Source: Clostridia bacterium (GTDB taxonomy: Bacteria > Bacillota > Clostridia > Christensenellales > Borkfalkiaceae). From it: a stretch of DNA of 64,000 nt. The position numbers and the translations under genes are program-made. The notes beneath the pieces were generated by a model. That model made no database searches. It was not told the origin of the DNA and saw only the letters and a program-made list of their open reading frames with translations. Each line of letters begins with the position of its first letter. Positions within the stretch are counted from its first letter, which is position 1. The stretch spans positions 3,334-67,333 of the forward strand of contig JAFURH010000037.1 of assembly GCA_017471945.1 (NCBI GenBank). Direction: 5' to 3'. Shown piece by piece: positions 12,651 through 59,799 of the stretch.

Positions 12651-12688
12651 AAAACCCCGTGAAAATCAAACGATTTTCACGGGGTTTT
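12651..12688 (-). terminator. Perfect 17-bp hairpin immediately downstream (minus strand) of the tRNA/tmRNA-like 3' fragment
   Basis: aaaaccccgtgaaaatc / gattttcacggggtttt with a 4-nt loop. On the minus strand it follows ...CCTCGACCA directly and is followed by TTTTTGCTTGTTTTTT. Confidence 0.65.
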
Positions 12689-12749
12689 GGTCGAGGCGAC
12701 GGGGATCGAACCTACTTCGGAAATCGCTGAACGCCTTTAAAATTAAGAG
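12685..12749 (-). repeat. Direct repeat copy 1: orphan 3' fragment (T-arm, acceptor 3' strand, CCA) of a tRNA/tmRNA-like gene; putative att site
   Basis: The minus strand reads ...GGCGTTCAGCGATTTCCGAAGTAGGTTCGATCCCCGTCGCCTCGACCA. 61/65 identical to 59735..59799 in the same orientation; mismatches at 12713, 12728, 12744, 12748. Confidence 0.75.
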
Positions 12750-12762
12750 ATTTTGAGTATAT

Positions 12763-12801
12763 TGCCCCAATTTTGCCCTAAATTATATTACAAAATAAAC
12801 C
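12763..12801. promoter_or_regulatory. Candidate integrase arm-type site block (TGCCCCAA n3 TGCCCTAAA ... AATAAACC)
   Basis: TGCCCCAA at 12763-12770, TGCCCTAAA at 12774-12782, AATAAACC at 12794-12801. A homologous block lies at 59622-59656, just after the integrase stop codon. Confidence 0.4.
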
Positions 12802-12836
12802 ACCGAATTTGCGTCTGTTCATCTTACTTTTTACAT

Positions 12837-12865
12837 AAGGATTTGGCTCGTCCAAGTCCTTTTTT
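12837..12865 (+). terminator. Terminator-like hairpin in a non-coding AT-rich spacer
   Basis: 10-bp stem aaggatttgg / ccaagtcctt (one G-T), 5-nt loop, T run. No ORF upstream on the + strand. Confidence 0.35.
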
Positions 12866-13091
12866 CTTGCTTTTCTATGAACTCGAAGCCCTTTAAAAAG
12901 ACTAAGATGCTTTTATTTCTTTAGGTTTCAGCCTTCCAACCCCCAAGATTTGCACCCAAACGAATAAAATAACAAAGCAAAAGTATAAATTTTTTCGGCA
13001 ATACTAAAATCTAAGCACCGCAGGCGCGCTCACAAAAGTCAAGACGTCGTTTAATGCTCTCAAGTTATTTAAAATTCTTATAATCGACGTT

Positions 13092-13943
13092 TTAAAACCC
13101 GAAATTTTTATGCGTTTTACGATACTGTAAAGGGGAAAGTCCTGTGCGTTCTCGAAAGACTTTGATAAAATAGGTATAAGAGGAAAAACCCGTTTTTTCT
13201 GCGATTGCCGTCACGTTTAACATAGTGGTAGTTAAATAGTTTTTTGCCATATGCAGGCGATATTGTGTGAGATATTCGTGTAAAGTTTGTTTTGTGTGTA
13301 TTTTCATTAAACGATTAAGATGATAGGAATGATAATTGAACTGCTCGGCAATCGTGCTGTTGTCCAATTCTGCGTTTTGGTAGTTATTTCGAATAAATTC
13401 CTGAACGCTTTGGATGAGTTTATAATCGGGTTTTTCGCTGGGATATTCACGCAGAAGTTCTAAAAGAGCAAGTTTTAAATAGGCAGATGCGGAATGTTTG
13501 TAATAGGAAACTTTGTGTAAAAAGAGTTGAATACAGGTTGACACGTATCCTTGACAATGTATACCGTTTTTTTCTATCAGTATTTGGGAAAATTCTTGCG
13601 GTAGCGGATAGTTTGGGAAAATTTCTTTTTTAAAGGTGCTTTCCGTTGCCGTGCCTAACGAGTGAGATTGTTTGTGAAATTCGTCCGTCAAATCAAAGTT
13701 CAAAACGTGAATTTTAACGGCTTTTTCGTCGGAAAAGCGAAAATGATAGTGTGTTTTGGGAGGCAAAAAGAGTAAAGCTCCTTTGGAAAAGGAAAAACTT
13801 TGACCGTTTGCAAAAAATAAGCCGTCGCCTTGTACGATATAAAATAAACGACAGTCATAACAAACACTGTTTTCTTTTTTTGGATAATAAGCTTCGTGCG
13901 TGCGCGCGTATCGAATAAAAGGATTTACTTGTACAATTTCCAT
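13092..13943 (-). CDS. AraC-family transcriptional regulator (cupin-like N-domain plus C-terminal HTH)
   Basis: C-terminal AraC signature IAEKTGFSSYTYFIKVFRERTGLSPLQYRK. GGAGAG ribosome-binding site before the ATG. Divergent from the operon starting at 14089. Confidence 0.85.
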   Translation of the reverse strand: MEIVQVNPFIRYARTHEAYYPKKENSVCYDCRLFYIVQGDGLFFANGQSFSFSKGALLFLPPKTHYHFRFSDEKAVKIHVLNFDLTDEFHKQSHSLGTATESTFKKEIFPNYPLPQEFSQILIEKNGIHCQGYVSTCIQLFLHKVSYYKHSASAYLKLALLELLREYPSEKPDYKLIQSVQEFIRNNYQNAELDNSTIAEQFNYHSYHLNRLMKIHTKQTLHEYLTQYRLHMAKNYLTTTMLNVTAIAEKTGFSSYTYFIKVFRERTGLSPLQYRKTHKNFGF

Positions 13944-14088
13944 AAAACTCTCCTTATGTGTTTATTATAACACAACAGGATAATTTGCGCAAGTAAATAT
14001 TTGTTTTATTATGTTTTTTTGTTTGTTGAATAATATATTTTTTCTTTTGATTTCTTTATAATAATACAAAAAGAGGAAAGGAGATCGT

Positions 14089-15102
14089 ATGCTTTTTTCG
14101 GTTGGCTATGGCGTAAAATCGGATAATCGTTTGGTGGAAGGAATTATTGCCTTAAAGCAAGGAATTCACGAGGTCTATTTTTCTTGGGGCAAAACGCCGA
14201 GCGGACGAAACGACCAAACCCGTAGCGAAGGGCTTACGCAGTGGGAAGCGCAGCAAAAACAAATCGAAGATTTGAAGATTTTGTATAAAGAGGGATTGAA
14301 ATTTAATCTTCTCTTCAACGCGAATTGCTACGGCGATAAGGCGCAAGCGCGTTCGTTTTTTTCGGAAATCGGTGAAACGGTGGAGTACGTGGGAGGAAAT
14401 TTTTCTCTTTCTTCCCTCACGACGACTTCGCCTTTGATAGCAAAATTTATCAAACAAAATTTCCCTGAAATAGACGTGCGCTCTTCCGTGAACATGGGAA
14501 TCGGCAGTATTCTTGGAATGGAATACGTAGCGGACGTATTTGATAGTTTCTATGTGAAACGGGAATTAAACCGCGATTTTAACGCCTTAAAAAGCCTGCG
14601 GAAATGGTGCGACGAAAACGGCAAACAGATGTATTTGCTTGCCAACAGCGGCTGCTTAAACGACTGTTCGGCGCATACTTTTCATGATAATTTGGTGGCG
14701 CACGAAGACGGCGCGTCAAAAATGGATAACGGGTATCAATTCACGGGCGTATGCAAAGCGTATTTGTCGCAAGAAAAGAATAGGCACGTGCTTTTGGACG
14801 GCACGAATTATATCCGTCCCGAAGATACGGAGCTGTACGAAGGGCTTGTGCCTGCTATGAAGTTGGCTACGCGTGTGCATGAAAATCCGTCGAGAGTATT
14901 AAGAGCCTATATTGAACGGAAAAAATTCGTTGGCAACACGGCGAGCTTATTAGAGCCAAACCACGCAGGTACGATTTATCCTTACGTACTTGAAAACGGC
15001 AAAATCGAAAGAAAAATAGAAAACGGAAAACTTATATACGCGAACGGAGAAAACGCGTTCGTGAAATTGGAGGAGAACTATGCTTACCAGCAAAATGATT
15101 AA
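14089..15102 (+). CDS. Divergent peptidase-U32-like (TIM-barrel) protein
   Basis: The layout resembles U32 proteins: EVYFSW early on, then VKRELNRDFNALKSL, then LLANSGCLNDCSAHTFH where U32 proteins carry their Cys-rich signature. The assignment is tentative. Confidence 0.45.
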   Translation: MLFSVGYGVKSDNRLVEGIIALKQGIHEVYFSWGKTPSGRNDQTRSEGLTQWEAQQKQIEDLKILYKEGLKFNLLFNANCYGDKAQARSFFSEIGETVEYVGGNFSLSSLTTTSPLIAKFIKQNFPEIDVRSSVNMGIGSILGMEYVADVFDSFYVKRELNRDFNALKSLRKWCDENGKQMYLLANSGCLNDCSAHTFHDNLVAHEDGASKMDNGYQFTGVCKAYLSQEKNRHVLLDGTNYIRPEDTELYEGLVPAMKLATRVHENPSRVLRAYIERKKFVGNTASLLEPNHAGTIYPYVLENGKIERKIENGKLIYANGENAFVKLEENYAYQQND

Positions 15103-16162
15103 ACAAGCAGCTTTTGAAGCAGGTGCAGACCTTTGCGGTATCGGACCTATGTCCCGATTTAACGGTGCGCCTGACGTGATGAATCCACAGTTCTTGTTCC
15201 CGCAGGCAAAGAGCTGTATCGCAATGGCGTTTCGTATTCCGCGCGGAGTACAAAGAGGCATTGAAGAAGGTACGCAATTTTATCAGTACCCGTCTATGGC
15301 GTACGGCGGTATCAACGAAATTCACGCGCCTGCGGTTTTGTATCACGTAGGAAAGGTGATAGAGGACGAAGGCTACGAAGCGTTCGTGTATCGTAATACG
15401 GGTGCGCGAGGCGCAGTATCGGATATGGACGGTTCGCCCGGAAATACTCTTTCCCCCGAAGAACAAATCGAAATCAGTAAACACGCGAAAGGCAAAACGG
15501 CGCATCATAGAAGCGTTCAATATACCCGTGCGGTGGAAGAGGGTAAGCAACCCCCCGATTTGCAATTTCAATTCCGTTTAGCGGCGGTCGCTTGCGGTCT
15601 TGGCGAAATCGGTTGGAGTAAAATGCTCTTAACCCCCGAATTTGGACCTTTGCAGCGTGTGGCGTTTATTTTCACGGACGCGGAGCTTGAATACGACGAA
15701 ATGTATTCGGGTAAACCCCTTTGCAGAAGATGCGGAGCTTGCGTAAGAGAATGTCCCGGCGGCTGTATTCCCGCAATTAAATCGGGCAAGACGATTACGG
15801 TTGATTTAGCGGGCAAGAAGTGCGAATGGGGGGATATCGATATGTGGCGTTGTTATGCGTTCTACACGCACGGCGGCAGATATTATAATCCTTTCGTACC
15901 CAAAGAAGTATTCGACAAAAACGAAAACGGTATGCTCGATTTGTTAGAGGGCGTGACGGACGTTGCCAACAAAAAGGAAGTTATGAAAGTTTACACCGCG
16001 CTTGAAAAATATTTCCCGAGCTGGGTGGGCTATAATATGGCGAAATGTGGCGGCTGTATCCGCGCTTGCGTGAGTATGCTCGAAAAGAAAGGCGGGTGTA
16101 TGGAAGGCAGGTTCGAAAACCCGTTGCGCCACGAAATGAAAGCGTGGAAGATGGATAGATGA
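15080..16162 (+). CDS. QueG/RdhA-superfamily-like [4Fe-4S] protein, paralog 1
   Basis: N-terminus MIKQAAFEAGADLCGIG is typical of epoxyqueuosine-reductase-like proteins. CRRCGACVRECP at 15722-15757. Distal WRC ... CGGCIRAC cysteines. Overlaps the upstream gene by 23 nt. Confidence 0.65.
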   Translation: MLTSKMIKQAAFEAGADLCGIGPMSRFNGAPDVMNPQFLFPQAKSCIAMAFRIPRGVQRGIEEGTQFYQYPSMAYGGINEIHAPAVLYHVGKVIEDEGYEAFVYRNTGARGAVSDMDGSPGNTLSPEEQIEISKHAKGKTAHHRSVQYTRAVEEGKQPPDLQFQFRLAAVACGLGEIGWSKMLLTPEFGPLQRVAFIFTDAELEYDEMYSGKPLCRRCGACVRECPGGCIPAIKSGKTITVDLAGKKCEWGDIDMWRCYAFYTHGGRYYNPFVPKEVFDKNENGMLDLLEGVTDVANKKEVMKVYTALEKYFPSWVGYNMAKCGGCIRACVSMLEKKGGCMEGRFENPLRHEMKAWKMDR

Positions 16163-16509
16163 TAGAAATCAAGGAAAACCCGAAAAACGGCAACGGCTTT
16201 GATACGGTACATAACTTTGAGGGCTGGAAGGTTGCGTTTATCACATGCGCCGAGCAGTACGGCGAATTAAAGGCTGTTAAACGGCACACACAAACGGACG
16301 AAGCGTTTCTGCTCGTCAAAGGCAAAGCGACGCTTTTTACTGCCGACGGCGCCGAGCCGTTAAGGGAAACGGCGTTGGAAAAAGAAAAATTATATATCGT
16401 AAAGAAAAACACATGGCATCACTTGCAGGTGAGCGAGGACGCGCTGTTGATTGTTGTGGAAAACAGCAATACGAGTAAGGACAATACGGAAAGCCGAATG
16501 GTAGGATAG
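16159..16509 (+). CDS. Small cupin-like protein
   Basis: 116 aa. ATGA overlap with the upstream gene. H-rich beta-barrel-like motifs (KRHTQTDEAFLLVKGKA ... TWHHLQV). Confidence 0.5.
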   Translation: MIEIKENPKNGNGFDTVHNFEGWKVAFITCAEQYGELKAVKRHTQTDEAFLLVKGKATLFTADGAEPLRETALEKEKLYIVKKNTWHHLQVSEDALLIVVENSNTSKDNTESRMVG

Positions 16510-16521
16510 TGAGGTAAGTAT

Positions 16522-17433
16522 ATGTTTCTGATCTACGGCGTGACGATTTTATGCGCTGGTGTAAGGTCGATTTTGACCAAGCAAAACGGAAAGATAAACG
16601 GAAGCGCGTCGTTGTTCAATTTTATGAGAGCGTTTAGCGCGTTCTTGTTGTTTGGAATTCTTGCGCTCGTCAGCGGATTTCAAATGCATTATCCAACTTG
16701 TCTTTACGGCGCGGCATATGGAATTTTGTTCTTTGGGTCTTGTTTTTGCGGGTTTCGCGCTATGCAGCGAGGACCTTTGGGAATTACCTCGTCGCTCGTT
16801 GCGTTTTCCCTTGTAATCCCGTGCGTATACGGCGCGGTGTTTTTAGAGGAAAAGATAGGACTTTTCGATATCGTCGGGTTCGTCTTGGTCGCCGTATCGA
16901 TTGTTATGATGAACAAGAAAAAGCACGCGACTTCTCATCACGGAACGTCTTCTTATCACGAGGACGTGAAAAAAGGTGATAACGAACCGAAATTCAAAAA
17001 AGGTTGGTGGATATACGTACTCGGTACGATCGTTTGCGACGGACTTCACGCCACCCTCAAAACTTTGCACCAAACGAGTTATCCCGGAATGTACCGTTAT
17101 GAATTTATGTGCGTAGGTATGCTTGTCGGCTCGGTAGCATTTATCTTTTTGATGTTTAAAAATCGGCATATCATTAAAGAGAGAGGAAAAGAACGAGGGA
17201 TAAAATGCACCGTTTACGGCGTGATTGCGGGTGTGGCGAACGGTGTGTATAATTACCTTGTTTTATATTTGGCGGGTAGCGAGAGCGCGATGGCGCTGTT
17301 CCCGATCGTTTCGGTGGCAACGATTGCCATAGGATTGCTTTCGGGGTGGATTATATTTAAGGAACGCTTAAATATAATGCAAATTGTCGGCGTATTGATT
17401 GCCGCAATTGCGATATTCTTTATAAAAATATAA
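16522..17433 (+). CDS. DMT/EamA-like 10-TM transporter
   Basis: Two hydrophobic halves separated by a charged loop (NKKKHATSHHGTSSYHEDVKKGD). GTGAGG ribosome-binding site. Similar to 21164..21976. Confidence 0.7.
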   Translation: MFLIYGVTILCAGVRSILTKQNGKINGSASLFNFMRAFSAFLLFGILALVSGFQMHYPTCLYGAAYGILFFGSCFCGFRAMQRGPLGITSSLVAFSLVIPCVYGAVFLEEKIGLFDIVGFVLVAVSIVMMNKKKHATSHHGTSSYHEDVKKGDNEPKFKKGWWIYVLGTIVCDGLHATLKTLHQTSYPGMYRYEFMCVGMLVGSVAFIFLMFKNRHIIKERGKERGIKCTVYGVIAGVANGVYNYLVLYLAGSESAMALFPIVSVATIAIGLLSGWIIFKERLNIMQIVGVLIAAIAIFFIKI

Positions 17434-17465
17434 AAAATAAAAATTACAATAGAGGAGAAACAAGA

Positions 17466-18371
17466 ATGATAACGGCTGCAATGATAAAAGAAAAAGCTAA
17501 AGAGCTTGGCGCGGGCGTATGCGGTATCGGCGATATTAAATATTTTATCGGCGACGATCCGCAACGTAATCCTTTGTCGATTTTGCCCAATGCGACTTGC
17601 GTAATTGGCTTCGGGCTTCCCGTTCCCAAAGGACTTTATATGGCAATGGAAGAACAAAGACAATATTTCAATTATACCAATCTCGCGGTGAAATACACCG
17701 ACGAAAGCTTTGCGGAAATCTTCCTTTTAAAGATGGGCGCAATGATCGAAGACGCAGGCTACGACGCTTGCTTGCAAAGATTTGTGCCTGGCTTTAAGGT
17801 GAAAGGGGATAAAAGCACCAACCCCGAAGTTTCCCGTATTTACGAATTAGAGTTCGCTTCGCCCGTAGCGGAAGGCAAACCCGTTCCGGACGTGATTATC
17901 GACTATAATAAAGCGGCGGTAGTTTGCGGCTTAGGTAGCGTAGGCTTGCACGGCAAAGTCATTTCTCCTAAATACGGCACGTTTATGCGTTGGGTGTTTA
18001 TCATCACGGATATGCCCCTTGAATGCGATAAACCGTTCGCGGAAGAGCTTTGCGATAAATGCGGTAAGTGTTTGCAAGCTTGTCCCGGAAAAGCGATTGA
18101 CGAAAACGGCGTGGACAGTTGGCAATGTAGCGTATATTATCGCGGGGCGCATAAATCTAACCCGTTTATGACGGAAGAAACGCTCAAAGACCATCCCGAG
18201 CGCGAGGCGATTATCAACGGCGAAAAGAAATTCAGCGCGGAAGAAGCGCAAGCGATTTATCCCGAGCTTAATTTCTTGCCGAAAACGCATTTTGGCTACG
18301 TGGCTTGCCTTTGCGGGAAATCGTGTGAAACGGTGTGCTATAAACATTTAAAGGAGCAAGGAAAAATATGA
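17466..18371 (+). CDS. QueG/RdhA-superfamily-like [4Fe-4S] protein, paralog 2
   Basis: MIKEKAKELGAGVCGIG N-terminus. CDKCGKCLQACP at 18051-18086. WQC ... CGKSCETVC distal cysteines. Confidence 0.65.
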   Translation: MITAAMIKEKAKELGAGVCGIGDIKYFIGDDPQRNPLSILPNATCVIGFGLPVPKGLYMAMEEQRQYFNYTNLAVKYTDESFAEIFLLKMGAMIEDAGYDACLQRFVPGFKVKGDKSTNPEVSRIYELEFASPVAEGKPVPDVIIDYNKAAVVCGLGSVGLHGKVISPKYGTFMRWVFIITDMPLECDKPFAEELCDKCGKCLQACPGKAIDENGVDSWQCSVYYRGAHKSNPFMTEETLKDHPEREAIINGEKKFSAEEAQAIYPELNFLPKTHFGYVACLCGKSCETVCYKHLKEQGKI

Positions 18372-19336
18372 GAAACCAAATTATAGAACTTGCAAAAAAA
18401 TGCGACGCAGATATCGTGGGTTTCGCACCTGCAAGTCGCTTTGATAAAAACGACCCTGTATTTAAAATTTATCCGAATACGAAAACGGTAATCGGGTTAG
18501 GCTTCCGTATTTTGCGCGGAATTTATCGCGGTGTGGAAGAAGGCACTACTTATTATCAATATACCACGATGGGCGTGGAAAACTTGGAAGAAACGGTAAT
18601 GCCGATGGCTCTTCTTCGTGTGGCGAATTTGATTGAGGAAGAGGGGTATATTGCTCTGCCTCAACGCAAAAGCCCGCTCATTTTGAACGAAGAGGGCACG
18701 ACCAACCCCGAAGTGGACTACACCGACGTATATCACGGCGTAAAAGCAGAAAATCAGTTGGATTTCTTGAACTGCGCGGTACAATGCGGACTTGGTGAAA
18801 AGAGCAAGATAGGAAGTTTATTAACGCCCGAATACGGTCCGTTTATTCGTTATTGTTTTATTTTGACGGATATGGAATTAGAGGCTACGCCCCTTGCGCA
18901 AACAAAGCTTTGCGACGGTTGCAACGAATGTATCAAAGCGTGTCCCGGTTGCGCGATTGATGAAAACGGAAAAACGGACAGCTGGCGTTGCGCGGTGTAT
19001 TATAACGGCGCAAACGGCAGTAAGAACCCGTTTATGCCCCCCGAAGCGTTTGCGGCATTTGAACACGCAAAGAAAATGGGCATTATCAACGGTACGTTAG
19101 AGTTCGACGAAGAAGGCGCGAAAGAAATTTTGGATAATATTTTCTTCTATCCCCCTGCAAAGCATTTCTACCGTACCTCGATTTGCGGTAGGGCTTGCGA
19201 CAGAGCTTGCTATATCCATTTGGAAGAAAAAGGCTTGTTGACGAAGTCATTTAATAGACCTTTTAGAGAAAAAGAAGATTGGAAATTAAGTACCGAGCAA
19301 TTTGAAAATTTCGGAAAGGAGAAGAAAGATGAATAA
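18368..19336 (+). CDS. QueG/RdhA-superfamily-like [4Fe-4S] protein, paralog 3
   Basis: IIELAKKCDADIVGFA N-terminus. CDGCNECIKACP at 18911-18946. WRC ... CGRACDRAC distal cysteines. ATGA overlap with paralog 2. Confidence 0.65.
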   Translation: MRNQIIELAKKCDADIVGFAPASRFDKNDPVFKIYPNTKTVIGLGFRILRGIYRGVEEGTTYYQYTTMGVENLEETVMPMALLRVANLIEEEGYIALPQRKSPLILNEEGTTNPEVDYTDVYHGVKAENQLDFLNCAVQCGLGEKSKIGSLLTPEYGPFIRYCFILTDMELEATPLAQTKLCDGCNECIKACPGCAIDENGKTDSWRCAVYYNGANGSKNPFMPPEAFAAFEHAKKMGIINGTLEFDEEGAKEILDNIFFYPPAKHFYRTSICGRACDRACYIHLEEKGLLTKSFNRPFREKEDWKLSTEQFENFGKEKKDE

Positions 19337-20591: not shown

Positions 20592-20611
20592 ACGAAATAA
20601 AACGTAATATA

Positions 20612-20662
20612 AATAAGCCGTTTGTGAACGAAACCACGTTCACAAACGGCTTATTTTATTTT
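20612..20662 (+). terminator. Strong rho-independent terminator ending the 14089-20591 operon
   Basis: Perfect 19-bp stem aataagccgtttgtgaacg / cgttcacaaacggcttatt, 6-nt loop, then TTATTTT. Confidence 0.8.
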
Positions 20663-20836
20663 CTTGCATTATATCACAAATTTGATTATATTCAAAGAGA
20701 GAGAAGGTTTTTAAAAAATATTTTTTTAAAGATATTGTTTATTTTTTCTATAAAACCAAAAAACGGATAAATTCAGCTAAAACCTTGAAAAATAAATAAA
20801 AAACGATTATTTTACAAAAAAAAGGGCTGAGGTAGG

Positions 20837-20903
20837 ATATCAAGAAAGTGTTATAAACATATCAAATATAAATATTGACGAATTTGATTATTCGTAGTAT
20901 AAT
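20837..20903 (+). promoter_or_regulatory. Promoter A: 44-bp conserved block, -35 TTGACG, 17 nt, -10 TATAAT
   Basis: 20837-20880 is identical to 22010-22053. TTGACG at 20875-20880, 17-nt spacer, TATAAT at 20898-20903. Confidence 0.65.
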
Positions 20904-21163
20904 AAAAATGAAAATATGATTATGCGGCATAGCTCGTTTATCGGATTAACGCCGCGAAATCAAGGAAGTAAGAAGATGAGAGAGTTTATGATAAAAGGAA
21001 TTTCCGTTTGTAATCCGTGTGATTTTGACGAGGAATATTTGATGCATACGGCCTTTTGGCGTGATTGCAATGATGCGCGTCATACAAAAGCTTTGCGGAA
21101 AGACGGCGAACCGATACGTACAGCCGGGAAAGCTTTTTTTGCTACGGCGCTTATTATCAGCTC

Positions 21164-21976: not shown

Positions 21977-22009
21977 GCGAAGAGCGTATGGAATTTTTTA
22001 CCGTTTTGA

Positions 22010-22076
22010 ATATCAAGAAAGTGTTATAAACATATCAAATATAAATATTGACGGTGAAGCTACCTTATGTTATAAT
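22010..22076 (+). promoter_or_regulatory. Promoter B: the same 44-bp block, -35 TTGACG, 17 nt, -10 TATAAT
   Basis: 22010-22053 is identical to 20837-20880. TTGACG at 22048-22053. TATAAT at 22071-22076. Lies 94 nt upstream of ATG 22170. Confidence 0.65.
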
Positions 22077-43776: not shown

Positions 43777-43783
43777 AGCATAA

Positions 43784-52547: not shown

Positions 52548-52590
52548 ACAGGGAGAACGACAACTATAAAACTTTAAGGAGCAAAAAACA

Positions 52591-53724
52591 ATGAAAGTAT
52601 TTGACGGACATTTACATACGTTTCGGTTTAAAGTGCCGATGCGGGAATCAATCGATTTATTCAAAAGACAATTTGAGAGATTTAACGTAGAGAAAATGAC
52701 TTTTTTGGCGTTACCTTGCGACGCTTGTCCTGGTAGAGTAGAGTGGGCGCACACGGACGAGATAGACAATATTCGCGTAATGTATTTCAAATCGGTGTTT
52801 TCGCCAAACGCTTACGCCTATGCGGGGTTGGAATATAAAAGGCTTAATACCAAAGATAAAAAAGCGGTTGCCGCGGATTTGTTGCGGCAGGTTAAAGAAT
52901 ATAAAAGAGTAGGCTACGACGGAATGAAAATGTACGAGGGACACCCCAACCACAGGAAGCTTTTGGGCTATCCTCTGTACGACGAAATTTTCGATCCGTA
53001 TTACGATTATTGTGAAAAAGAAGGATTTCCGATCCTTATGCACCTTGCGAATCCCGACTATATGTGGGAGGCGGACAAAGTGAGCGATTATTGGAAGGCG
53101 AGAGGTTGCTATTTTGACGAAACGTATCTTACCTTTCATCAATTCCACGAAGAGATTTTAAAGAGATTGGAAAAAAATCCCAAACTCAATTTTACGCTTG
53201 CGCATTGGGGCTTTTTGACCTACGACAAGGTCGCGGCAGAAAAGTTTATGTCGTATGAGAATACCAAGCTGGACGTATGTCCCGGCGGGGAGAATTTCTT
53301 TAATATCTTGGCAGACAAAGGATATTGGATTCCGTTTATCGAGAAGTACGCGGACAGAATTACGTATGGTACGGACAGCTATAATTTCGAATACGATAAC
53401 GAGGAGAATTGGTTGCGGGCGACGGGGAATAGACCTCTTTTGGCGCAGAATTTTTTAACGGGTAAGCTTTCGGATGAATTCGATTATATAGGCAGAAAAT
53501 ATACGGGCGCGGGCTTAACGAAAAGAACGCAGGAAAAAATCCTGTACGAAAATTTAGCCAAACTGCTTGGCGAGTCGAACGCAATCGATTACGATCATTT
53601 TATAGCAAGATGCGAAAAAATGTTGGAAACGGTAGACGAAAATTCGCTGGACAGATACAATTTGTGGTGTATGAAAAACGACTTCGAGTCGATGAAAAAA
53701 GGAACGTTCTATTGGAAAAATTAA
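52591..53724 (+). CDS. Amidohydrolase-superfamily (metal-dependent TIM-barrel hydrolase) protein
   Basis: N-terminal VFDGHLHTF metal motif. Paralog of 55799..56869. Confidence 0.6.
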   Translation: MKVFDGHLHTFRFKVPMRESIDLFKRQFERFNVEKMTFLALPCDACPGRVEWAHTDEIDNIRVMYFKSVFSPNAYAYAGLEYKRLNTKDKKAVAADLLRQVKEYKRVGYDGMKMYEGHPNHRKLLGYPLYDEIFDPYYDYCEKEGFPILMHLANPDYMWEADKVSDYWKARGCYFDETYLTFHQFHEEILKRLEKNPKLNFTLAHWGFLTYDKVAAEKFMSYENTKLDVCPGGENFFNILADKGYWIPFIEKYADRITYGTDSYNFEYDNEENWLRATGNRPLLAQNFLTGKLSDEFDYIGRKYTGAGLTKRTQEKILYENLAKLLGESNAIDYDHFIARCEKMLETVDENSLDRYNLWCMKNDFESMKKGTFYWKN

Positions 53725-53739
53725 AAAACAGAGGTTGCA

Positions 53740-54471
53740 ATGAAGATTTTATCGATAGGAAACAGCTTTTCACAAGATGCACATAGGTATTTACACGGAG
53801 TTGCAAAAGCCGACGAATTTAATTTAAAAGTTGTAAATTTGTACATCGGTGGTTGTACTTTACGAACACATTATTTGAATATGCTTGACGATGTTGCGTC
53901 CTACAGTTTTGAGTTTAACGGTGAGACTACGGGAATAAAAGTATCCATTCGTCAAGCACTCGTTAGTGACGATTGGGACTATATAACATTACAACAAGCA
54001 AGCCCTTTGAGCGCGAAAGAAGAAACGTATTTTCCGTATATTGAAGAAATTGCGAAATATGTTAGAAAATATTGCCCGAAAACGAAAATTGTATTGCATC
54101 AAACTTGGGCATATGAAAACAGAAGTGAACGTCTTGCGCAATTAGGGTTTGAAACGCACGAACAAATGCTTGAAAATTTGAGTAAAGCGTATGAAAATGC
54201 GGCTTTAAGTATCGGTGCAGACGGAATTATTCCTTGCGGAAAAGTTATGTATTGGGCACAAAAAAACGGAATAAAATGTGTGCATAGAGATTCTTTTCAC
54301 GCTGCGTTTGGTATAGGAAGATATTTGTTGGCTCTTACTTGGTATGCGTTTTTGACGGGGAATTCAATTGATGAAAATACTTTTAACGATTTTGACGAAT
54401 CCGTGTCTCGGGACGAACAAGAAATTGCAATTCAAACGATAAATGAAATAGTAAAAGGAAAAGTATTATGA
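53740..54471 (+). CDS. DUF4886/SGNH-hydrolase-like protein
   Basis: KILSIGNSFSQDAHRYL...NLYIGGCTLRTH is the characteristic N-terminal pattern of this family. Confidence 0.55.
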   Translation: MKILSIGNSFSQDAHRYLHGVAKADEFNLKVVNLYIGGCTLRTHYLNMLDDVASYSFEFNGETTGIKVSIRQALVSDDWDYITLQQASPLSAKEETYFPYIEEIAKYVRKYCPKTKIVLHQTWAYENRSERLAQLGFETHEQMLENLSKAYENAALSIGADGIIPCGKVMYWAQKNGIKCVHRDSFHAAFGIGRYLLALTWYAFLTGNSIDENTFNDFDESVSRDEQEIAIQTINEIVKGKVL

Positions 54472-55796
54472 TAAAAAGATTTAAAGAGAAAAAAGGAGTA
54501 ATCTATAACCCATATATTGGCTTTACAAGCTTTCAACATTTCAGAGGAGAAGAGTTGTATTCGGATTGCGTCACGGGCAGGAGCAGCGGCGTGGCAAGCT
54601 GCGAAACGGAAAACTACGAGTGCTATCCCGTACCCGCAGGCGTAGAAGAAAAGGGCAGAGAGCAAGGCTACTATCCCGATAACACGGTCGCGTATATTCG
54701 TATTTTATGGAAAGAATTCGAGCCCAAGCCAGGCGAATATAATTACGCATTCATTGAAAGTATTTTGGCGAAAGCAAAGGCAAAGGGGCAAACGGTGATG
54801 TTCCGTCTTATGCCACATAGCACGTGCGCGCGCGACGACGTACCCGATTGGCTGAAAGAGCTTATGCTCTGCCCCGCTCGTCCTGCGGGAATGCGGGTAA
54901 AGGATTCGCCTACGGATCCTCGCTATTTGAAGTTGTTTGGGCAAGCAATAGAAAAGCTCGGCGAAAGATTTGATCAAGACCCGACGCTCGATTGCGTAGA
55001 CGTAGCGCTTGGCGGGGCGTGGGGCGAAGGCAGTCAGAGCTTTCCCGAAGAGGATATGAAAGCGTTGATGGATATTTACGTGCGCGTATTCCCGAACACC
55101 AAGCTAATCGGGCAGTTTGCCAACGTGAATATGCTGAATTATATCAGCGAAAAACGTACGATTGGTTGGCGGGCGGACGGAACGGGAAGCCCGAAGCATA
55201 TGAACGAGATATTTCCCGCACGTTTTCCGTTGATCAAAAAAGAAATTTGGAAAACCGCGCCCGTATCCTTTGAAAGCTACTGGTGGATATCCGAATGGTA
55301 TCGTCAGGGCTGGGATATCGACAATATCATTGAAAAGACCTTGGAATGGCATATCAGTACGTTCAATACGAAATCTTTTCCCATTCAATACGCATTAAAG
55401 GATAAGATCGAGCGTTGGCTTGAAAAAATGGGTTATCGGTTCGTAATTCGAGAGATAGAATATCCCGAAACGGTAAACGCGGGAGCAATTGCGCAAATTT
55501 CTTTAAAAATCGAAAACAAGGGCGTTGCTCCGATCTACAATAAATTGCCGCTCAAACTGCGTTTTAAAGGTGAAAAACAAGCGTTTGAATTTGTAACCGA
55601 TGCGGATATTACGAAATGGTTGCCCGGCGAACATACAGAAATGATTGAAGCGGCTTTGCCCGAGAATATGCCTGCGGGAAATTACGAGATCGCTTGTGCG
55701 ATCGGCGGAGGAGAATATCCCATCGTGCAGATAGCAATCGAAGCGGAAAACGACGAGGGATTTTACTCGTTGGCAAAAATTGAGATCAAGGAATAA
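54468..55796 (+). CDS. DUF4832-like (glycoside-hydrolase-like) protein
   Basis: ATGA overlap with the upstream gene. N-terminal NPYIGF motif, plus WKEFEPKPGEYN, a beta-galactosidase-like block. The assignment is tentative. Confidence 0.4.
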   Translation: MIKRFKEKKGVIYNPYIGFTSFQHFRGEELYSDCVTGRSSGVASCETENYECYPVPAGVEEKGREQGYYPDNTVAYIRILWKEFEPKPGEYNYAFIESILAKAKAKGQTVMFRLMPHSTCARDDVPDWLKELMLCPARPAGMRVKDSPTDPRYLKLFGQAIEKLGERFDQDPTLDCVDVALGGAWGEGSQSFPEEDMKALMDIYVRVFPNTKLIGQFANVNMLNYISEKRTIGWRADGTGSPKHMNEIFPARFPLIKKEIWKTAPVSFESYWWISEWYRQGWDIDNIIEKTLEWHISTFNTKSFPIQYALKDKIERWLEKMGYRFVIREIEYPETVNAGAIAQISLKIENKGVAPIYNKLPLKLRFKGEKQAFEFVTDADITKWLPGEHTEMIEAALPENMPAGNYEIACAIGGGEYPIVQIAIEAENDEGFYSLAKIEIKE

Positions 55797-55798
55797 AA

Positions 55799-56869
55799 AT
55801 GAAGAAAGTATTCGATACCCATATACACAGCACGCAAAAGGTAAGCGTGGAAAATTCGATAGCGGTTTATCAGAAAATTTTTACTTGGACGGGCGTAGAA
55901 AAGGCGTTGTTTTTAGGTCTGCCGCAGGATTCCAAAGGCCATACCGATCATTCGCAAAACTTGAAAACGTTGTTTTACAAACAGTATTTCGGCGGATATG
56001 GTTTTTATGGGCTTTCGCACGATACCTCTTTGACCGACGCGGAAACGGAAAAGGATTTTTTACGGCAAGCGCAGAAGGCGTTTTCCGCGGGCTTCGACGG
56101 CGTGAAAATATTGGACGGAAAGCCTTCGATGCGGCGTATTTATAAGCGGCTGTTATCCGATCCCGTTTACGATAAATTTTATTCGTTTATGGAAGAATGC
56201 GGGTTACCGATCACGTTGCATAATGCCGACCCCGCGCAATTTTGGGATATTTCCAAAATGACTCCTTATGCGATGGAACACGGGTGGTATTGCGGCGACG
56301 GGCTTTCAAAAGACGAGCTTTTCGAGGACGTGATGCAGGTAATGAAAAAACATCCGAAATTGCATTTAACGCTTGCACATTTCGGATTTACGGGCGATAA
56401 TATAGAGCAAGCGCAACGCTTTTTGGGTGGATATGAATATACGATGTTCGACACTACGCCGAATACCGAAAGCTATTTCGATATGCTCGGGGATTGGGAA
56501 ACGTGGCACGCGTTTTTTAAAAAATATTCGGACAGGTTTAAGTATGGCGCGGATACCTATAATTTCGAGGCGAAAGACGAGGAAGAATTGAAAGTATTAT
56601 CCACGCGCAGACCGTATTTCCAAAGACGGTTTTTTGAAACGGCAGACAAGTACGAATTCGGGAAACAAGAATTTCTCGGCATAAACTTAGAAGCGGATAT
56701 TCTCGACAAAATTTATATGCAGAATGCCGAGCGTGAATACGGCGAGCCGAAAAAAATCGACGACGAATACGTTATAAGAACGTTGGAGAACTTGCAAAAG
56801 ACGTATCGGGAATGCGATTTTATATTTGAAGATTTAAGATTTATCCAAAAAAATTATAATTTTGATTGA
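55799..56869 (+). CDS. Amidohydrolase-superfamily protein; paralog of 52591..53724
   Basis: VFDTHIHST N-terminal motif. Shared blocks with the paralog: FDGVKILDGKP vs YDGMKMYEGHP, and HLTLAHFGF vs NFTLAHWGF. Confidence 0.6.
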   Translation: MKKVFDTHIHSTQKVSVENSIAVYQKIFTWTGVEKALFLGLPQDSKGHTDHSQNLKTLFYKQYFGGYGFYGLSHDTSLTDAETEKDFLRQAQKAFSAGFDGVKILDGKPSMRRIYKRLLSDPVYDKFYSFMEECGLPITLHNADPAQFWDISKMTPYAMEHGWYCGDGLSKDELFEDVMQVMKKHPKLHLTLAHFGFTGDNIEQAQRFLGGYEYTMFDTTPNTESYFDMLGDWETWHAFFKKYSDRFKYGADTYNFEAKDEEELKVLSTRRPYFQRRFFETADKYEFGKQEFLGINLEADILDKIYMQNAEREYGEPKKIDDEYVIRTLENLQKTYRECDFIFEDLRFIQKNYNFD

Positions 56870-57025: not shown

Positions 57026-57853
57026 TTACATATCAATTTTATTAAGCCATTTTATAATCAACTTTTTTACTTGCTCTTTATCAAGCAAATCTATTCTTAA
57101 ATTTCTATCCTTCTTTATCTTTTTATTTGATATAGCAGGAGCTAAATTCGCAATACTTTTTTTATTGTCTATCCCTTTTTGTATCTTCTCGTAATTAAAA
57201 TTTGGATTTTCCGAAAGCATTTGCGTTATAGATACGTCGAAAAAGTCCGCAAGTTTAATCACCGCAGACAACATAGGCTCGTTGCCCTTTTCTAATCTCG
57301 TCAAGTTTCCTATCGACATATCTATCGCCTTGCCTAGCTTTCGATAATTAATTTTTACAAACGTATGCAAATTATGAAAATTCTTTGTGAAGTTTTCTAT
57401 GATTTGTTCGTCCTTTTCAATCCTGATATATTTTCCTCTACGGTGTAAGTCGGATATAAGCTCACGAAAAATCTTAGACAATAGTTCATATACTTCATAT
57501 TTCCATAAAGTTAAATGCTTGTCTATCTCGACAAGTATTTTTTCTTTATACGGTTTTATCTCAATACCGCCCAACCGCTTTATAAAACTCACCTGCAACT
57601 CCAGCACTTCTTCTATATCAAAGTATATCTCATCTCCACATAATCTTTCGATATCCGTACAATACATATCCGCTATTTTCTTCGCTACCGTAATATAAGG
57701 CGAAACGGCTCTCGTATCATACGAAATCATTGTCGATTCTGCAAGCCCCGTATATGCCGTAATATCCAAATACCGTAAATCAAAAATCACTTCACGGCAA
57801 CATTCTATATTTTTTGAAAACATAATTTGTTTTTGTAAAACATAACTATCCAT
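57026..57853 (-). CDS. Helix-turn-helix (XRE-like) protein of the integrase module
   Basis: AGGAGA ribosome-binding site. HTH-like GKAIDMSIGNLTRLEKGNEPMLSAVIKLADFFDVSITQML. AT-rich codon usage unlike the cargo genes. Confidence 0.65.
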   Translation of the reverse strand: MDSYVLQKQIMFSKNIECCREVIFDLRYLDITAYTGLAESTMISYDTRAVSPYITVAKKIADMYCTDIERLCGDEIYFDIEEVLELQVSFIKRLGGIEIKPYKEKILVEIDKHLTLWKYEVYELLSKIFRELISDLHRRGKYIRIEKDEQIIENFTKNFHNLHTFVKINYRKLGKAIDMSIGNLTRLEKGNEPMLSAVIKLADFFDVSITQMLSENPNFNYEKIQKGIDNKKSIANLAPAISNKKIKKDRNLRIDLLDKEQVKKLIIKWLNKIDM

Positions 57854-58317
57854 AAAAATTTTCTCCTAAAAATTGAAAAAAACGCTTGACGTCCTGTTCA
57901 CTATTATGATATTATAATATTCCAACGTTCCAAATCCATAAAGCCGTTCTCGGCGTTTTTTATTCAAATTTTTTGTTCATTATAAAGATAATTATAGCCA
58001 ATATTAACGAATATGTCAAGTGATTTGAAATACCATTTTTTTGTGGAGGTGATTACCAAAAACTTAGCCATCTTATATCACGAATGAAAAGGGAAAATGA
58101 CTGTAAAAAGTGTTGCTATTTTCCTATATTTTACCAGCAGGATAAGGAAATTGCCACAAACGGCAATTTCGAGTAAAAACTGAGCAGGAAACCTGCCTCG
58201 TTTAACAACCACGTAAAAAGAATAATAGGAGGTGATTTTAGAAAAATAAAACGCAATTAGCTAATCCGAACGGAATAAAAAACAGAATACCAATCCCAAA
58301 AATCTATCACGAAACAA

Positions 58318-58346
58318 TTGACAATAGCGTGTTAATACGATATAAT
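58318..58346 (+). promoter_or_regulatory. Consensus sigma-70-type promoter upstream of the integrase
   Basis: TTGACA at 58318-58323, 17-nt spacer, TATAAT at 58341-58346. Confidence 0.6.
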
Positions 58347-58424
58347 ATAAAAACTTATAAAATATTAAATTAAGGAGATTCGAAATATAAGGAATTAAGA
58401 AAGATTAATAAAATTATTGAAGTT

Positions 58425-59606
58425 TTGAAGGCGAGCCCTAACGCAGAAGAGAATATTCAATTCGTTTTGGATTTAGCAGATAAATCTATTAAAGCCGAAA
58501 CGTTGGAAGACCTTATGCGGAACGGGAATACGACGGGACAACCGTCTGAACAAAAACAAGATGAACAGGCAAAAGTCGGTCTAAAATTCACTAACGAGGA
58601 GATTAGACAAATGCCTAAAACATTCAAAAAAGAATTTCGCGCGGAAGGATGCACCGCACACATCCGCAAAAGACCTTGCGGCAAAGAAACTTTTACTTAT
58701 GAGATTCGCTATCGCAGAAACGGTTATAATATCACGATAACGGATAAGAATCTCGAAAACGGGAAACGCAGATTTATCGAAGCACTAAAAATGGCGGAAG
58801 AAACAAAACAGTACGGAAATATTCCCTATACGTTCAACGCCTTTTCCAATTACTATTTCCAAAAATTTCGAATACATAAGGTTACGCCACAAACGTTCAA
58901 AAAAGATATGTCACGGTATAACTTGTATTTGAAGCCTTATTTCAAAGAAAAGCCCTTAAAAAGAATAACTCCTGATGATTGTCAAAGGTTATTGGATGAC
59001 ATTAAAGCGACGGGAAAAAGCAAAACGACGGAAGAAATACGTGCGTTGCTGATGGTAATTTTCAAAATGGCGATTGCCCATCATTTAATAAACCATAATC
59101 CGCTTGATGTTGTGTTCTATACCAAGCACGAGAATGAACACGGCGAGGCACTTACAAAGGAAGAAGAACGTATATTGTTTACTGCGTTGGCGGATAATCT
59201 TTACCGTTCTGCTTTCGCATTGGCGCTTTATACGGGGCTTCGACCGAATGAATTGAAAACGGCGAAAATAGAGGGAAAATTTATCGTTGCGATCAATTCC
59301 AAGCGTAAAAACGGGAAGATCGAATACAAGAAAATTCCCATCACGAAAATGCTTGCGCCGTATCTCGAAGGACGGAAACTGAATATTCCCTGCTATCGGT
59401 ATATGCGTGAAAAAGTAAAAGAAATTTTGCCCAATCACAAACTATACGACTTGCGGACGACCTTTTATTCAAGGTGTAAAGAATGTGGGATTTCCGAACA
59501 CGCTATGAAGGAGTTTGTCGGACATTCGCTTGGGAAACTCGGTAATGCATACACCGATTTATCGGATGTGTTCTTGTTAAGAGAGGGAGAGAAATTTGCG
59601 TATTAA
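58425..59606 (+). CDS. Tyrosine recombinase / phage-type integrase
   Basis: Catalytic blocks LALYTGLRPNEL, LYDLRTTFYSRC, FVGHSLG, GNAYTDL. The start codon is uncertain: TTG 58425 has no clear ribosome-binding site, and the frame is open from 58374. Confidence 0.8.
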   Translation: MKASPNAEENIQFVLDLADKSIKAETLEDLMRNGNTTGQPSEQKQDEQAKVGLKFTNEEIRQMPKTFKKEFRAEGCTAHIRKRPCGKETFTYEIRYRRNGYNITITDKNLENGKRRFIEALKMAEETKQYGNIPYTFNAFSNYYFQKFRIHKVTPQTFKKDMSRYNLYLKPYFKEKPLKRITPDDCQRLLDDIKATGKSKTTEEIRALLMVIFKMAIAHHLINHNPLDVVFYTKHENEHGEALTKEEERILFTALADNLYRSAFALALYTGLRPNELKTAKIEGKFIVAINSKRKNGKIEYKKIPITKMLAPYLEGRKLNIPCYRYMREKVKEILPNHKLYDLRTTFYSRCKECGISEHAMKEFVGHSLGKLGNAYTDLSDVFLLREGEKFAY

Positions 59607-59621
59607 AAAAATATGCGAAAT

Positions 59622-59656
59622 TGCCCCAAATACTGCCCCAAAATCGAGAATAAACC
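59622..59656. promoter_or_regulatory. Candidate integrase arm-type site block (TGCCCCAAA x2 ... AATAAACC)
   Basis: TGCCCCAAA at 59622-59630 and 59634-59642. AATAAACC at 59649-59656. Homologous to 12763-12801. Confidence 0.4.
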
Positions 59657-59691
59657 CTAAAACAACTTAATATTTTCATGCAAATATGCAA

Positions 59692-59738
59692 AAAACACGG
59701 CGTTTATGCGTTAATTTTTTGCATAAATGCCGTGTTTT
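59692..59738 (-). terminator. 18-bp hairpin abutting repeat copy 2
   Basis: aaaacacggcgtttatgc / gcataaatgccgtgtttt (one G-T), 11-nt loop. It holds the same position relative to the CCA end as the hairpin at 12651-12688, but the sequence is unrelated. Confidence 0.5.
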
Positions 59739-59799
59739 GGTCGAGGCGACGGGGATCGAACCCACTTCGGAAATCGCCGAACGCCTTTAAAATAAAGGG
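59735..59799 (-). repeat. Direct repeat copy 2: orphan tRNA/tmRNA-like 3' fragment; putative att site
   Basis: The minus strand reads ...GGCGTTCGGCGATTTCCGAAGTGGGTTCGATCCCCGTCGCCTCGACCA. The T-stem is better paired than in copy 1. No matching 5' acceptor strand within the next 400 nt. Confidence 0.75.

Follow-up and report, generated by a model that had tools for sequence, protein, structure and literature searches.

Does a 47-kb block of glycan-utilisation genes in an uncultured ruminant-gut Clostridia bacterium (MAG), bounded by direct repeats and ending in an integrase gene, represent a discrete integrative element, and if so, what did it integrate into? To answer this, we analysed a 64,000-nucleotide stretch of the scaffold (the window) together with its continuation to the right (83.5 kb, extended coordinates). 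We consider it probable that positions 12716-59737 constitute one discrete integrative genomic island, designated E1 (47 kb), the outer of two islands that lie in tandem at tRNA-Pro(CGG).

The core of the direct repeats derives from tRNA-Pro(CGG)

An initial annotation reported a 65-bp sequence in the same orientation at both ends of the block. This was confirmed: 12685-12749 and 59735-59799 are 61/65 identical, blastn gave 61/64 for 12684-12749 and 59734-59799, and the copies lie 47,050 bp apart and are the only two within the window. The first 28 nt of the repeat (TGGTCGAGGCGACGGGGATCGAACCCAC) form an exact run, and we estimate a chance expectation of about 1e-7 for an exact 27-mer pair in 64 kb. 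The repeat had been read as the 3' end of a tRNA or tmRNA. This reading holds for these 28 nt (12688-12715 and 59738-59765), the only RNA-gene-derived part of the repeat, in which the 3' portions of the acceptor and T-arm of tRNA-Pro(CGG) can be recognised; it fails for tmRNA and for the other ~32 nt (TTCGGAAATCGCYGAACGCCTTTAAAAT...), which are non-tRNA element arm sequence.

Searches of the window with ARAGORN and Rfam identified neither a complete tRNA nor a complete tmRNA, so the right copy too is a mere fragment. Both programs located an intact tRNA-Pro(CGG) on the same scaffold at extended coordinates 75529-75604, 11.5 kb past the window and 15.8 kb to the right of the right repeat copy. 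The 28-nt core is present as three direct copies on one strand, at 12688, 59738 and extended 75529, of which the last alone belongs to a complete tRNA gene; the core at 12688-12715 matches the 3' end of the intact tRNA (extended 75529-75556) at 27/28 positions and the core at 59738-59765 at 28/28. The left fragment, O(L) (12688..12715, minus strand), comprises the CCA, acceptor 3' strand and T-arm of a displaced tRNA-Pro(CGG) 3' end, matches the tRNA-Pro of the homologous locus L017 and is the attR core of E1. The right fragment, O(R) (59738..59765, minus strand), serves E1 as its attL core and a second island, E2, as its attR core, and the homology of E1 to other loci encoding relatives of its integrase, int1, stops exactly at 59765. 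The right repeat copy is the junction of two stacked islands and not an intact gene.

Two sibling islands share a backbone

E2 is a 15.8-kb island that fills the space between the right repeat copy and the intact tRNA-Pro, which adjoins E2 and not E1, and it encodes its own integrase, int3. The array opens on the left with the chromosome, which bears the original terminator; one tRNA-Pro 3' fragment then precedes E1, another separates E1 from E2, and E2 is followed by the intact tRNA-Pro and the chromosome on the right. The two islands have in common a backbone of ~2.7 kb that comprises an HTH regulator, an integrase and a terminator hairpin. In E1, the regulator (57026..57853, minus strand, 275 aa) is 79% identical to its E2 counterpart, HTH2, and the conserved intergenic block that separates the HTH gene from the divergent int gene (57854..58212) is 78% identical to that of E2; over E1 57030-58212 and E2 72689-73874, the DNA is likewise 78% identical. 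Backbone GC content is 35% (0.347), compared with 46-52% in the surrounding DNA. At the tRNA-side end of each island, the HTH regulator and the divergent tyrosine integrase are followed by a tandem motif pair and then by a terminator hairpin that borders on the CCA end, while the far end carries a second copy of the island's own motif pair, 47-48 nt inside.

The cargo of E2 begins with a gene for a helicase with five HA domains (61588..63876, plus strand) and continues past the window with a 9-gene polysaccharide-synthesis cluster, followed by HTH2, int3 and the intact tRNA-Pro, such that 13 kb of non-mobility cargo lies between the two E2 arms. E2 also contains an unrelated tyrosine integrase gene, int2 (60179..61399, minus strand; 21% identical to int1), which lies just outside the right repeat copy and was absent from the initial annotation.

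The integrases of E1 and E2

The tyrosine integrase previously noted at the right inner edge of the block was verified, as ORF 58425-59606 ends 129-131 nt from the right repeat copy. The int1 gene spans 58380..59606 (plus strand), with its longest ORF starting at 58425, but the conserved TTG start codon of this family, at 58380, is mutated to TCG, which makes it doubtful that E1 is still mobile. In an alignment of 25 family members, R273, R344, H367 and Y376 of int1 are invariant, K293 and K295 are candidate catalytic lysines and Y341 replaces the first histidine of the HxxR box (YDLR); int1 therefore has the catalytic residues of a lambda Int-type tyrosine recombinase. The Pfam catalytic-domain model PF00589 did not match int1. 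The int1 family matches PHROG integrase families and is distantly related to the lambda Int and Tn1549 Int structures (profile match, E about 1e-5), while IMG/VR contained only distant (35%) integrase relatives. The E2 integrase, int3, is 48% identical to int1, and between the two the putative arm-binding segment (41%) has diverged just a little further than the catalytic domain (52%). No excisionase (Xis/RDF) was recognised.

Island ends carry matched motif pairs and terminator hairpins

Both repeat copies were described as abutted on the CCA side by strong hairpins of unrelated sequence, and folding energies agree with this. The left hairpin (12651..12687, minus strand; -26.1 kcal/mol, z -6.3), with a U-run next on the minus strand, is the chromosomal terminator (B' side) that originally followed tRNA-Pro and now follows the displaced 3' fragment. 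The right hairpin (59696..59734, minus strand; -21.8 kcal/mol, z -4.7) belongs to the P' arm; an identical 39/39-nt copy follows int3 at extended 75487-75525 and it is kept in four other homologous loci. This recurrence after int3 supports the earlier proposal that one hairpin is chromosomal and the other element-borne, and the latter would take the place of the tRNA's own terminator after integration.

On the other side of the core, the P arm of E1 starts with the non-tRNA block of ~32 nt (12716..12748, plus strand), which is common to E2 at 29/32 positions, occurs only at the two repeat copies and stands where the variable and anticodon region of a tRNA would be. It is followed by the tandem pair TGCCCCAAT / TGCCCTAAA (12763..12782, plus strand, spacing 11), putative arm-type integrase sites whose motif is found only here and after int1. 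The corresponding P'-arm pair, two copies of TGCCCCAAA with a spacing of 12 (59622..59642, plus strand), is directly 3' of the int1 stop codon and is kept in the homologous loci L007, L008, L016 and L017. A search of both strands of the 83.5 kb for TG[CT]CC[CT]AA[AT] returned four sites, forming the pairs 12763/12774 and 59622/59634, which bears out the initial observation of similar motif blocks just inside both repeat copies. The P arm of E2 (59766..59832, plus strand) features the shared ~32-nt block and then the pair CTTCGTCGGT / CTTCGTCAAT (59812, 59823), which recurs as two copies of CTTCGTCGAT after the int3 stop codon at extended 75412/75423; as a tandem pair, this motif is present in the 83.5 kb only at the two ends of E2.

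Each island thus has its own motif pair at both ends, TGCCCCAA for E1 and CTTCGTCG for E2. Relative to the core, the P pair begins 48 nt after it in E1 and 47 nt after it in E2, and the P' pair begins 116 nt before it in E1 and 117 nt before it in E2. Among 72 distinct family loci, 71% have a tandem 9-mer pair (at least 8/9 matching, with a spacing of 11-12) after the stop codon of the integrase gene, compared with 2% of random 62-mers, and the sequence of the pair varies between relatives. The motif pairs on both arms of E1 and E2 are therefore putative arm-type binding sites.

These integrases may be lambda-type heterobivalent enzymes. Strand exchange would take place in or next to the T-loop, as all differences between repeat copies lie 5' of the T-loop and tRNA identity ends exactly at the 5' T-stem strand, and the 3' end and hairpin supplied by the element would keep the tRNA functional. 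Since the core is shared and the arm motifs differ (TGCCCCAA with int1, CTTCGTCG with int3), assembly of each integrase should be limited to the ends of its own island, and the stacked islands could then excise independently. The pair is a natural test case for how islands stacked on a single tRNA core might avoid cross-excision by means of different arm motifs.

Homologous loci

Close homologues of int1 (76-91% identical) feature the same arrangement, in which the integrase gene is followed by a TGCCCCAA pair and the same hairpin and adjoins a complete tRNA-Pro, and about nine more distant relatives also abut tRNA-Pro. This supports the proposal of an integrase-delimited island bounded by duplicated 3' tDNA, as do the intact tRNA-Pro(CGG) on the same scaffold, preceded by a sibling integrase and the identical 39-nt hairpin, and the sibling island E2, with the same att geometry and a different arm motif at both of its ends. 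At the DNA level, E1 is homologous to other int1 loci only within a 1.4-kb int/att module. Comparison with related DNA had been suggested as a means of finding a site that lacks E1; an exact-protein look-up of contigs with an identical flanking GFO, helicase or int1 protein yielded only the occupied arrangement, with no empty site, attP or attB junction. For the flank gene, even the nearest relatives reach no more than 76% identity and are non-syntenic, which makes them too distant to compare for absence of the island.

Cargo of E1

The E1 cargo comprises about 25 genes (13092..56869, plus strand). Pfam analysis identified two AraC regulators, an Fe-S/cupin/GFO/EamA operon and giant secreted proteins with Laminin_G_3, LRR_5, Big-like and DUF4838 domains, as well as GH2-like, GH127, ABC transporter, Amidohydro_2, DUF4832 and DUF4886 proteins. 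The same analysis bore out the claim that this cargo is free of phage and conjugation genes. No gene of E1 or E2 belongs to a relaxase, coupling protein or type IV secretion family, so an integrative conjugative element (ICE) was rejected; a prophage was likewise rejected, as terminase, portal, capsid and tail families are absent from both islands. The Pfam search also found no relaxase domain in E1 or E2 that would point to an IME. Cell-to-cell transfer of E1 would therefore need a helper or transformation. The initial annotation called the island unusually large, but 47 kb is an ordinary size for tDNA islands.

In composition, the cargo cannot be told apart from the left chromosomal flank (GC 0.460 versus 0.470, tetranucleotide r = 0.97), and this flank, which includes a GFO gene at 11189-12472, carries an old paralogue (28-35% amino acid identity) of a three-gene cassette of E1. 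On these grounds, the cargo has no foreign appearance. Should E1 be mobile, or have been so in the past, a single integration would supply a fibre-degrading gut bacterium with a complete 25-gene glycan-utilisation programme, in which regulators and an ABC transporter are combined with glycoside hydrolases and giant surface proteins, and this would bear on carbohydrate niche partitioning in the ruminant gut.

Alternative explanations

This native-like composition raises the alternative that the glycan genes at 13-57 kb are native chromosomal DNA trapped between att sites, and that E1 never moved as a 47-kb unit. One possible route is the integration of a small element made up of the backbone only, with later rearrangements or deletions of a second element leaving a P-arm and core remnant at 12.7 kb. 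The low GC content of the backbone relative to the cargo, the paralogous cassettes inside and outside the interval, the restriction of homology with other int1 loci to the 1.4-kb module and the failure to find an empty site are all compatible with such a history. We nevertheless consider it unlikely, because several precise events would be needed to place an intact core, the 32-nt block and a correctly spaced and oriented E1 motif pair at 12.7 kb, whereas one integration accounts for all of these features. In addition, E2 has the same design, with non-mobility cargo between its arms, and both L016, which encodes a 91% identical int1 homologue, and the HTH-homologue loci L107-L114 also abut large secreted-protein cargo.

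Even less probable is that E1 and E2 are a single composite island of ~63 kb that moved, if at all, between the outermost cores, with the internal core a relic of accretion. Any pair of the three nearly identical cores could in principle recombine, and the start-codon change may have crippled int1, leaving int3 as the sole intact integrase of the family, yet the outer arms are mismatched (E1-type P at 12763 and E2-type P' at 75412) and each island keeps complete matched arms and its own integrase. There is hardly any likelihood that the 65-bp match is a dispersed repeat, a chance match or a tmRNA (ssrA) target. Rfam did return a tmRNA match to 59738-59785, but this was weak and sub-threshold (13.3 bits, E = 0.003, gathering score 47), and the tmRNA target was rejected because the full gene that carries the core is tRNA-Pro(CGG). 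A count of the repeat had been recommended as a check on dispersal: with the two copies in the window included, the core occurs only three times in 83.5 kb, in one orientation and always at island boundaries, and scans of genome, metagenome and viral collections did not return the pattern.

Relationship to known elements

A discrete island at a tRNA gene has ample precedent. Islander catalogues tDNA-integrated islands, including tandem arrays, and its commonest att class is the T-stem region (Hudson, Lau and Williams 2015, PMC4383910). E1 and E2 share with these islands a tyrosine integrase that targets a tRNA gene, an att site in the T-stem region, a 3' end supplied by the island and a displaced 3' fragment at the far end. 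As in the Islander arrays, an intact tRNA gene lies at one end and a displaced, directly oriented 3' tDNA fragment at the other, and each island carries an integrase and a tDNA fragment of its own (int1 and O(L) for E1; int3, and int2, with O(R) for E2). E1 is thus probably a tandem tRNA-integrated genomic island, a clean example of a well-known kind of element and no surprise, and conceptually the pair adds nothing foreign to what is established for tDNA islands and their accretion in tandem. They differ from the catalogued islands in their host, an uncultured ruminant-gut Clostridia MAG, in being stacked siblings with the same backbone and core but different arm motifs, and in their cargo, which is for glycan degradation in E1 and polysaccharide synthesis in E2. 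Like lambda Int and the Tn916/Tn1549 integrases, the E1 and E2 integrases have SAM-like core-binding and catalytic domains and are associated with pairs of direct-repeat motifs that lie on both att arms, each at a fixed distance from the core; by comparison, the similarity of int1 to these enzymes is very remote (E about 1e-5), it has YDLR for HxxR, and its arm binding is putative.

Tycheposons of Prochlorococcus are described as cargo elements that integrate and excise at tRNA genes and remodel larger genomic islands, and as mostly carrying nutrient-acquisition genes in hosts without conjugation or prophages (Hackl et al., bioRxiv 10.1101/2020.12.28.424599). Set beside this published description only, E1 resembles tycheposons in function, in a host of another phylum. 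E1 is also much larger than these elements. We tentatively speculate that E1 and E2 could belong to a family of cargo shuttles that is widespread in gut Clostridia and has a minimal backbone, with an HTH regulator and an integrase only. Such shuttles would stack at one tRNA and be independently excisable as arm motifs and integrase arm-binding domains co-diverge with a fixed core; free of phage and conjugation genes, they would carry entire loci for glycan degradation and surface polysaccharides from strain to strain and would be the Firmicutes equivalent of tycheposons. In Bacteroides, polysaccharide-utilisation loci ride on integrative conjugative elements, and E1 is comparable in that a glycan-degradation cluster is carried by a site-specifically integrated element in a gut bacterium, but unlike these loci it lacks genes for a relaxase, a coupling protein and type IV secretion, as well as a SusC/SusD pair. 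The combination of an ABC transporter and AraC regulators found in E1 is typical of Gram-positive glycan loci.

A tRNA-Pro fragment at both ends of a 47-kb region

The direct repeats reported in the initial annotation to bound 47 kb of DNA were recovered by blastn at 12685-12749 and 59735-59799 (61/64 identical, 47,050 bp apart), with no third copy elsewhere in the 64-kb window. The first 28 nt of both copies match exactly; by our own arithmetic, a pair of identical 27-mers should arise by chance ~1e-7 times in 64 kb. Neither ARAGORN nor Rfam detected a complete tRNA or tmRNA gene in the window, and the identity of the repeat was instead established via relatives of int1, the tyrosine integrase encoded beside the right copy. 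Four loci on other contigs (L007, L008, L016 and L017) encode integrases that share 76-91% identity with int1. Behind each of these integrase genes lie the TGCCCCAA pair and the hairpin of the window, and at three of the loci the hairpin is followed by a complete tRNA-Pro gene on the opposite strand. Comparison with these genes showed that the tRNA-Pro-derived part of the repeat is 28 nt only (TGGTCGAGGCGACGGGGATCGAACCCAC), comprising the CCA, the acceptor 3' strand and the T-arm, while the remaining ~32 nt (TTCGGAAATCGCYGAACGCCTTTAAAAT...) are non-tRNA, yet common to both copies. The proposed origin of the repeat in the 3' end of a structured RNA thus holds for a tRNA and for these 28 nt, but neither for the whole 65 bp nor for a tmRNA. 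For a tmRNA, no more than a weak 3' match appeared in a permissive Rfam search, and this reading was dropped once the full tRNA-Pro came to light; the region is not tmRNA-targeted. A 36-mer across the 28-nt core and the 32-nt block had 0 matches in a genome-collection scan, and the junction of the core with the adjacent far-end (P) arm had 0 matches in viral and metagenome scans, so the 32-nt block appears to be private to this lineage.

Two related, probable islands stacked on one tRNA gene

At the DNA level, the four related integrase loci match the window only from ~58356 to 59765, precisely where the tRNA-derived part stops. The right copy is therefore itself a fragment, which predicted a tandem array with the real tRNA gene further right. 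The window belongs to a 121 kb scaffold from a ruminant-gut metagenome (scaffold_328, ENA assembly ERZ28654056), which was extended rightward by an exact-protein look-up (coordinates above 64000 continue the window numbering), and this extension bore out the prediction. A complete tRNA-Pro(CGG) gene lies on the minus strand at 75529-75604 (ARAGORN, Rfam), preceded by a 39-nt hairpin identical to the right-hand hairpin of the window (75487-75525), a tandem pair of CTTCGTCGAT (75412/75423) and a third integrase gene, int3 (74125-75402; product 48% identical to int1). Transcribed divergently from int3 is the regulator gene HTH2 (72682-73512), whose product is 79% identical to that of HTH1 at 57026-57853 beside int1. 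At the other end, directly right of the right repeat copy, is the pair CTTCGTCGGT/CTTCGTCAAT (59812/59823). The locus can thus be divided into E1 (12716-59737), with TGCCCCAA pairs at both inner ends, and E2 (59766-75528), with CTTCGTCG pairs at both inner ends. Both share one geometry, in which the far-end pair begins 48 nt (E1) or 47 nt (E2) after the core and the integrase-side pair 116 nt (E1) or 117 nt (E2) before it. The two backbones are homologous in DNA (for example, 57030-58212 and 72689-73874 at 78%), including the HTH1-int1 intergenic block at 57854-58212, which is kept in E2 (73513-73874, 78% identical), whereas the cargos are unrelated.

As the initial annotation stated, the hairpins on the CCA side of the two repeat copies are both strong and mutually unrelated in sequence; both are minus-strand terminators. 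Neither E1 nor E2 contains a counterpart of the left hairpin (12651-12687), which is best read as the original chromosomal terminator of the tRNA. The core of the earlier reading, an integrative island, is retained on the strength of the shared backbone, the matched arms and the intact tRNA-Pro, but its right boundary proved to be a fragment and the structure a tandem array. We regard it as likely that E1 is an integrase-delimited island.

The empty site whose search had been proposed, or an excision junction, was not found: in exact look-ups, contigs with identical proteins for the helicase, int1 or GFO, the oxidoreductase encoded left of E1, were all occupied. GFO shares 38-59% identity with its GTDB relatives, none of which is syntenic, while the best homologues in a large protein database (73-76% identical) lie in other contexts and are likewise not syntenic. 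One 76%-identical homologue from the same samples (10001-11293 on L013/L014) sits among housekeeping genes (pyr genes, prolyl-tRNA synthetase and Clp) and is either a paralogue or from a related organism in the same gut.

Assembly breaks were seen at two points. All eight contigs with a 77%-identical HTH homologue (L107-L114) stop 210-380 nt upstream of the HTH gene, which suggests multi-copy sequence breaking assemblies there. In ERZ28018778, the MEGAHIT contigs k141_758279 and k141_882860 are split precisely where the tRNA-derived core ends, at 59765, and overlap by 141 nt (window 59625-59765). A second identical integrase/att module was rejected as the cause because the integrase-side (P') arm of E2 differs at several positions within this 141-mer; candidate causes are a strain variant, an alternative junction or a graph artefact.

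Integrases and their putative arm sites

The tyrosine integrase annotated near the right copy was confirmed: the int1 ORF (58425-59606, 393 codons) stops ~130 nt from that copy, and its product matches Pfam Phage_int_SAM_3 and Phage_int_M as well as PHROG integrase families. The motif blocks noted just inside the repeats were also borne out, as TG[CT]CC[CT]AA[AT] occurs at only four sites on both strands of 83.5 kb, forming two TGCCCCAA-type pairs (12763/12774 and 59622/59634) that each lie just inside one repeat copy. A tandem pair of 9-mers (at least 8/9 matching, spacing 11-12 nt) follows immediately after the integrase stop at 71% of 72 distinct family loci, compared with 2% of random 62-mers, and the motif varies among relatives (TGCCCCAAA, TGTGCCAAA, TATGCGACA, TTCTTCCCC, CTTCGTCGA and others). 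The family profile gave a distant match to the lambda Int and Tn1549 Int structures, and the catalytic residues R273, R344, H367 and Y376 are invariant. Taken together, the post-stop pairs, profile match and catalytic residues suggest that these are lambda-type heterobivalent integrases, for which the tandem pairs would be arm-type sites.

The differences between the left and right copies (12712, 12727, 12743 and 12746) are all 5' of the T-loop, the stretch from T-loop to CCA is identical across all three cores, and tRNA identity ends exactly at the T-stem 5' strand. This pattern would place strand exchange in or beside the T-loop, the most frequent class of att site in Islander (PMC4383910). 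Once integrated, the element would complete and terminate the tRNA with its own copy of the 3' end and its hairpin. Since the stacked siblings share the core and not the arm motifs, we tentatively infer that each integrase assembles only on both ends of its own island. Weakly in line with this, int1 and int3 have diverged most in the putative arm-binding segment (41% identity versus 52% in the catalytic domain). Such tidy pairing of arm motif and integrase in stacked siblings is worth following.

The TTG start that is conserved in the family after AAGGAG (L007, L008, L016 and int3) is TCG in int1 (58380-58382), and the first usable start is the TTG at 58425, 15 codons downstream, where the longest ORF begins. 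Given this substitution, E1 may be grounded or becoming immobile. No excisionase was recognised. 'orf69', between HTH2 and int3, was considered and rejected, as its first 36 codons alone are kept in E1 and it would encode a hydrophobic sequence; conserved regulatory DNA is the likelier reading. E2 also contains an unrelated integrase gene, int2 (60179-61399, minus strand; PF00589), which adjoins the E2 P arm, encodes a product 21% identical to int1 and int3, and is followed by a very strong hairpin (59925-59978, -34 kcal/mol).

Approximately nine more distant int1 relatives also adjoin tRNA-Pro, and other members adjoin tRNA-Glu, tRNA-Ser, tRNA-Asn or 5S rRNA genes (the last at L053, 11489-11604 and 16173-16335, two 5S copies 4.7 kb apart; L065, 4501-4617; L078, 1499-1615), so that the targets of the family are the 3' ends of various stable-RNA genes. 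No distal tDNA fragment was found within 10 kb upstream of 84 integrase-family loci, and the HTH-275 gene is absent beside all 84 loci fetched, so it is not a universal partner of the family. The NCBI entry for int1 itself is labelled 'MAG: Clostridia bacterium'. At L016, what follows the 91%-identical homologue is not a whole gene but a piece of tRNA-Pro that breaks off in the anticodon loop (11362-11410), probably another stacked-island junction.

Cargo of the islands

Pfam analysis of the ~25 cargo genes of E1 upheld the earlier description of polysaccharide-associated and transporter genes without phage or conjugation genes. They encode two AraC regulators, an operon of Fe-S, cupin, GFO/IDH/MocA and EamA proteins, giant secreted proteins (2355 aa with Laminin_G_3, 1103 aa, 849 aa with BspA-type LRR, 1052 aa and 1164 aa Big-like), DUF4838, GH2-like and GH127 proteins, a binding-protein type ABC transporter, two Amidohydro_2 proteins, DUF4886 and DUF4832. 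Glycan utilisation is a fair description of this set, and such a whole-locus cargo in an uncultured ruminant-gut Clostridia bacterium is worth following. Pfam detected no phage, relaxase or type IV secretion genes in E1, which is therefore neither an ICE nor a prophage. The claim of unusual size was not sustained, as 47 kb is ordinary for this class of island. The tycheposons of Prochlorococcus are cargo-only, tRNA-targeting elements, to which E1 bears a functional resemblance. E2 carries int2 together with an HA-repeat helicase and a cluster of nine genes for polysaccharide synthesis.

The GC content of the E1 cargo (0.460) is close to that of the left chromosomal flank (0.470; backbone, 0.347), and tetranucleotide usage makes the two compositionally indistinguishable (r = 0.97). 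In addition, the left flank (717-9674) and E1 (43784-52547) each contain a three-gene cassette for a ~1050-aa protein, a DUF4838 protein and a ~1200-aa Big-like protein; the two versions share 28-35% amino acid identity and are old paralogues of one functional type. The shared composition and paralogous cassette point to a cargo that was acquired from a close relative, has long been resident or was captured.

Two smaller duplications lie within the cargo. An exact 44-nt direct repeat (20837-20880 and 22010-22053), which flanks the EamA transporter gene (21164-21976) and precedes the 2355-aa gene, ends in TTGACG with TATAAT ~17 nt later at both copies and looks like a duplicated promoter/operator. 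Within the BspA-type LRR gene (32815-35364) is a 147-nt tandem duplication (33075-33363, 93% identical).
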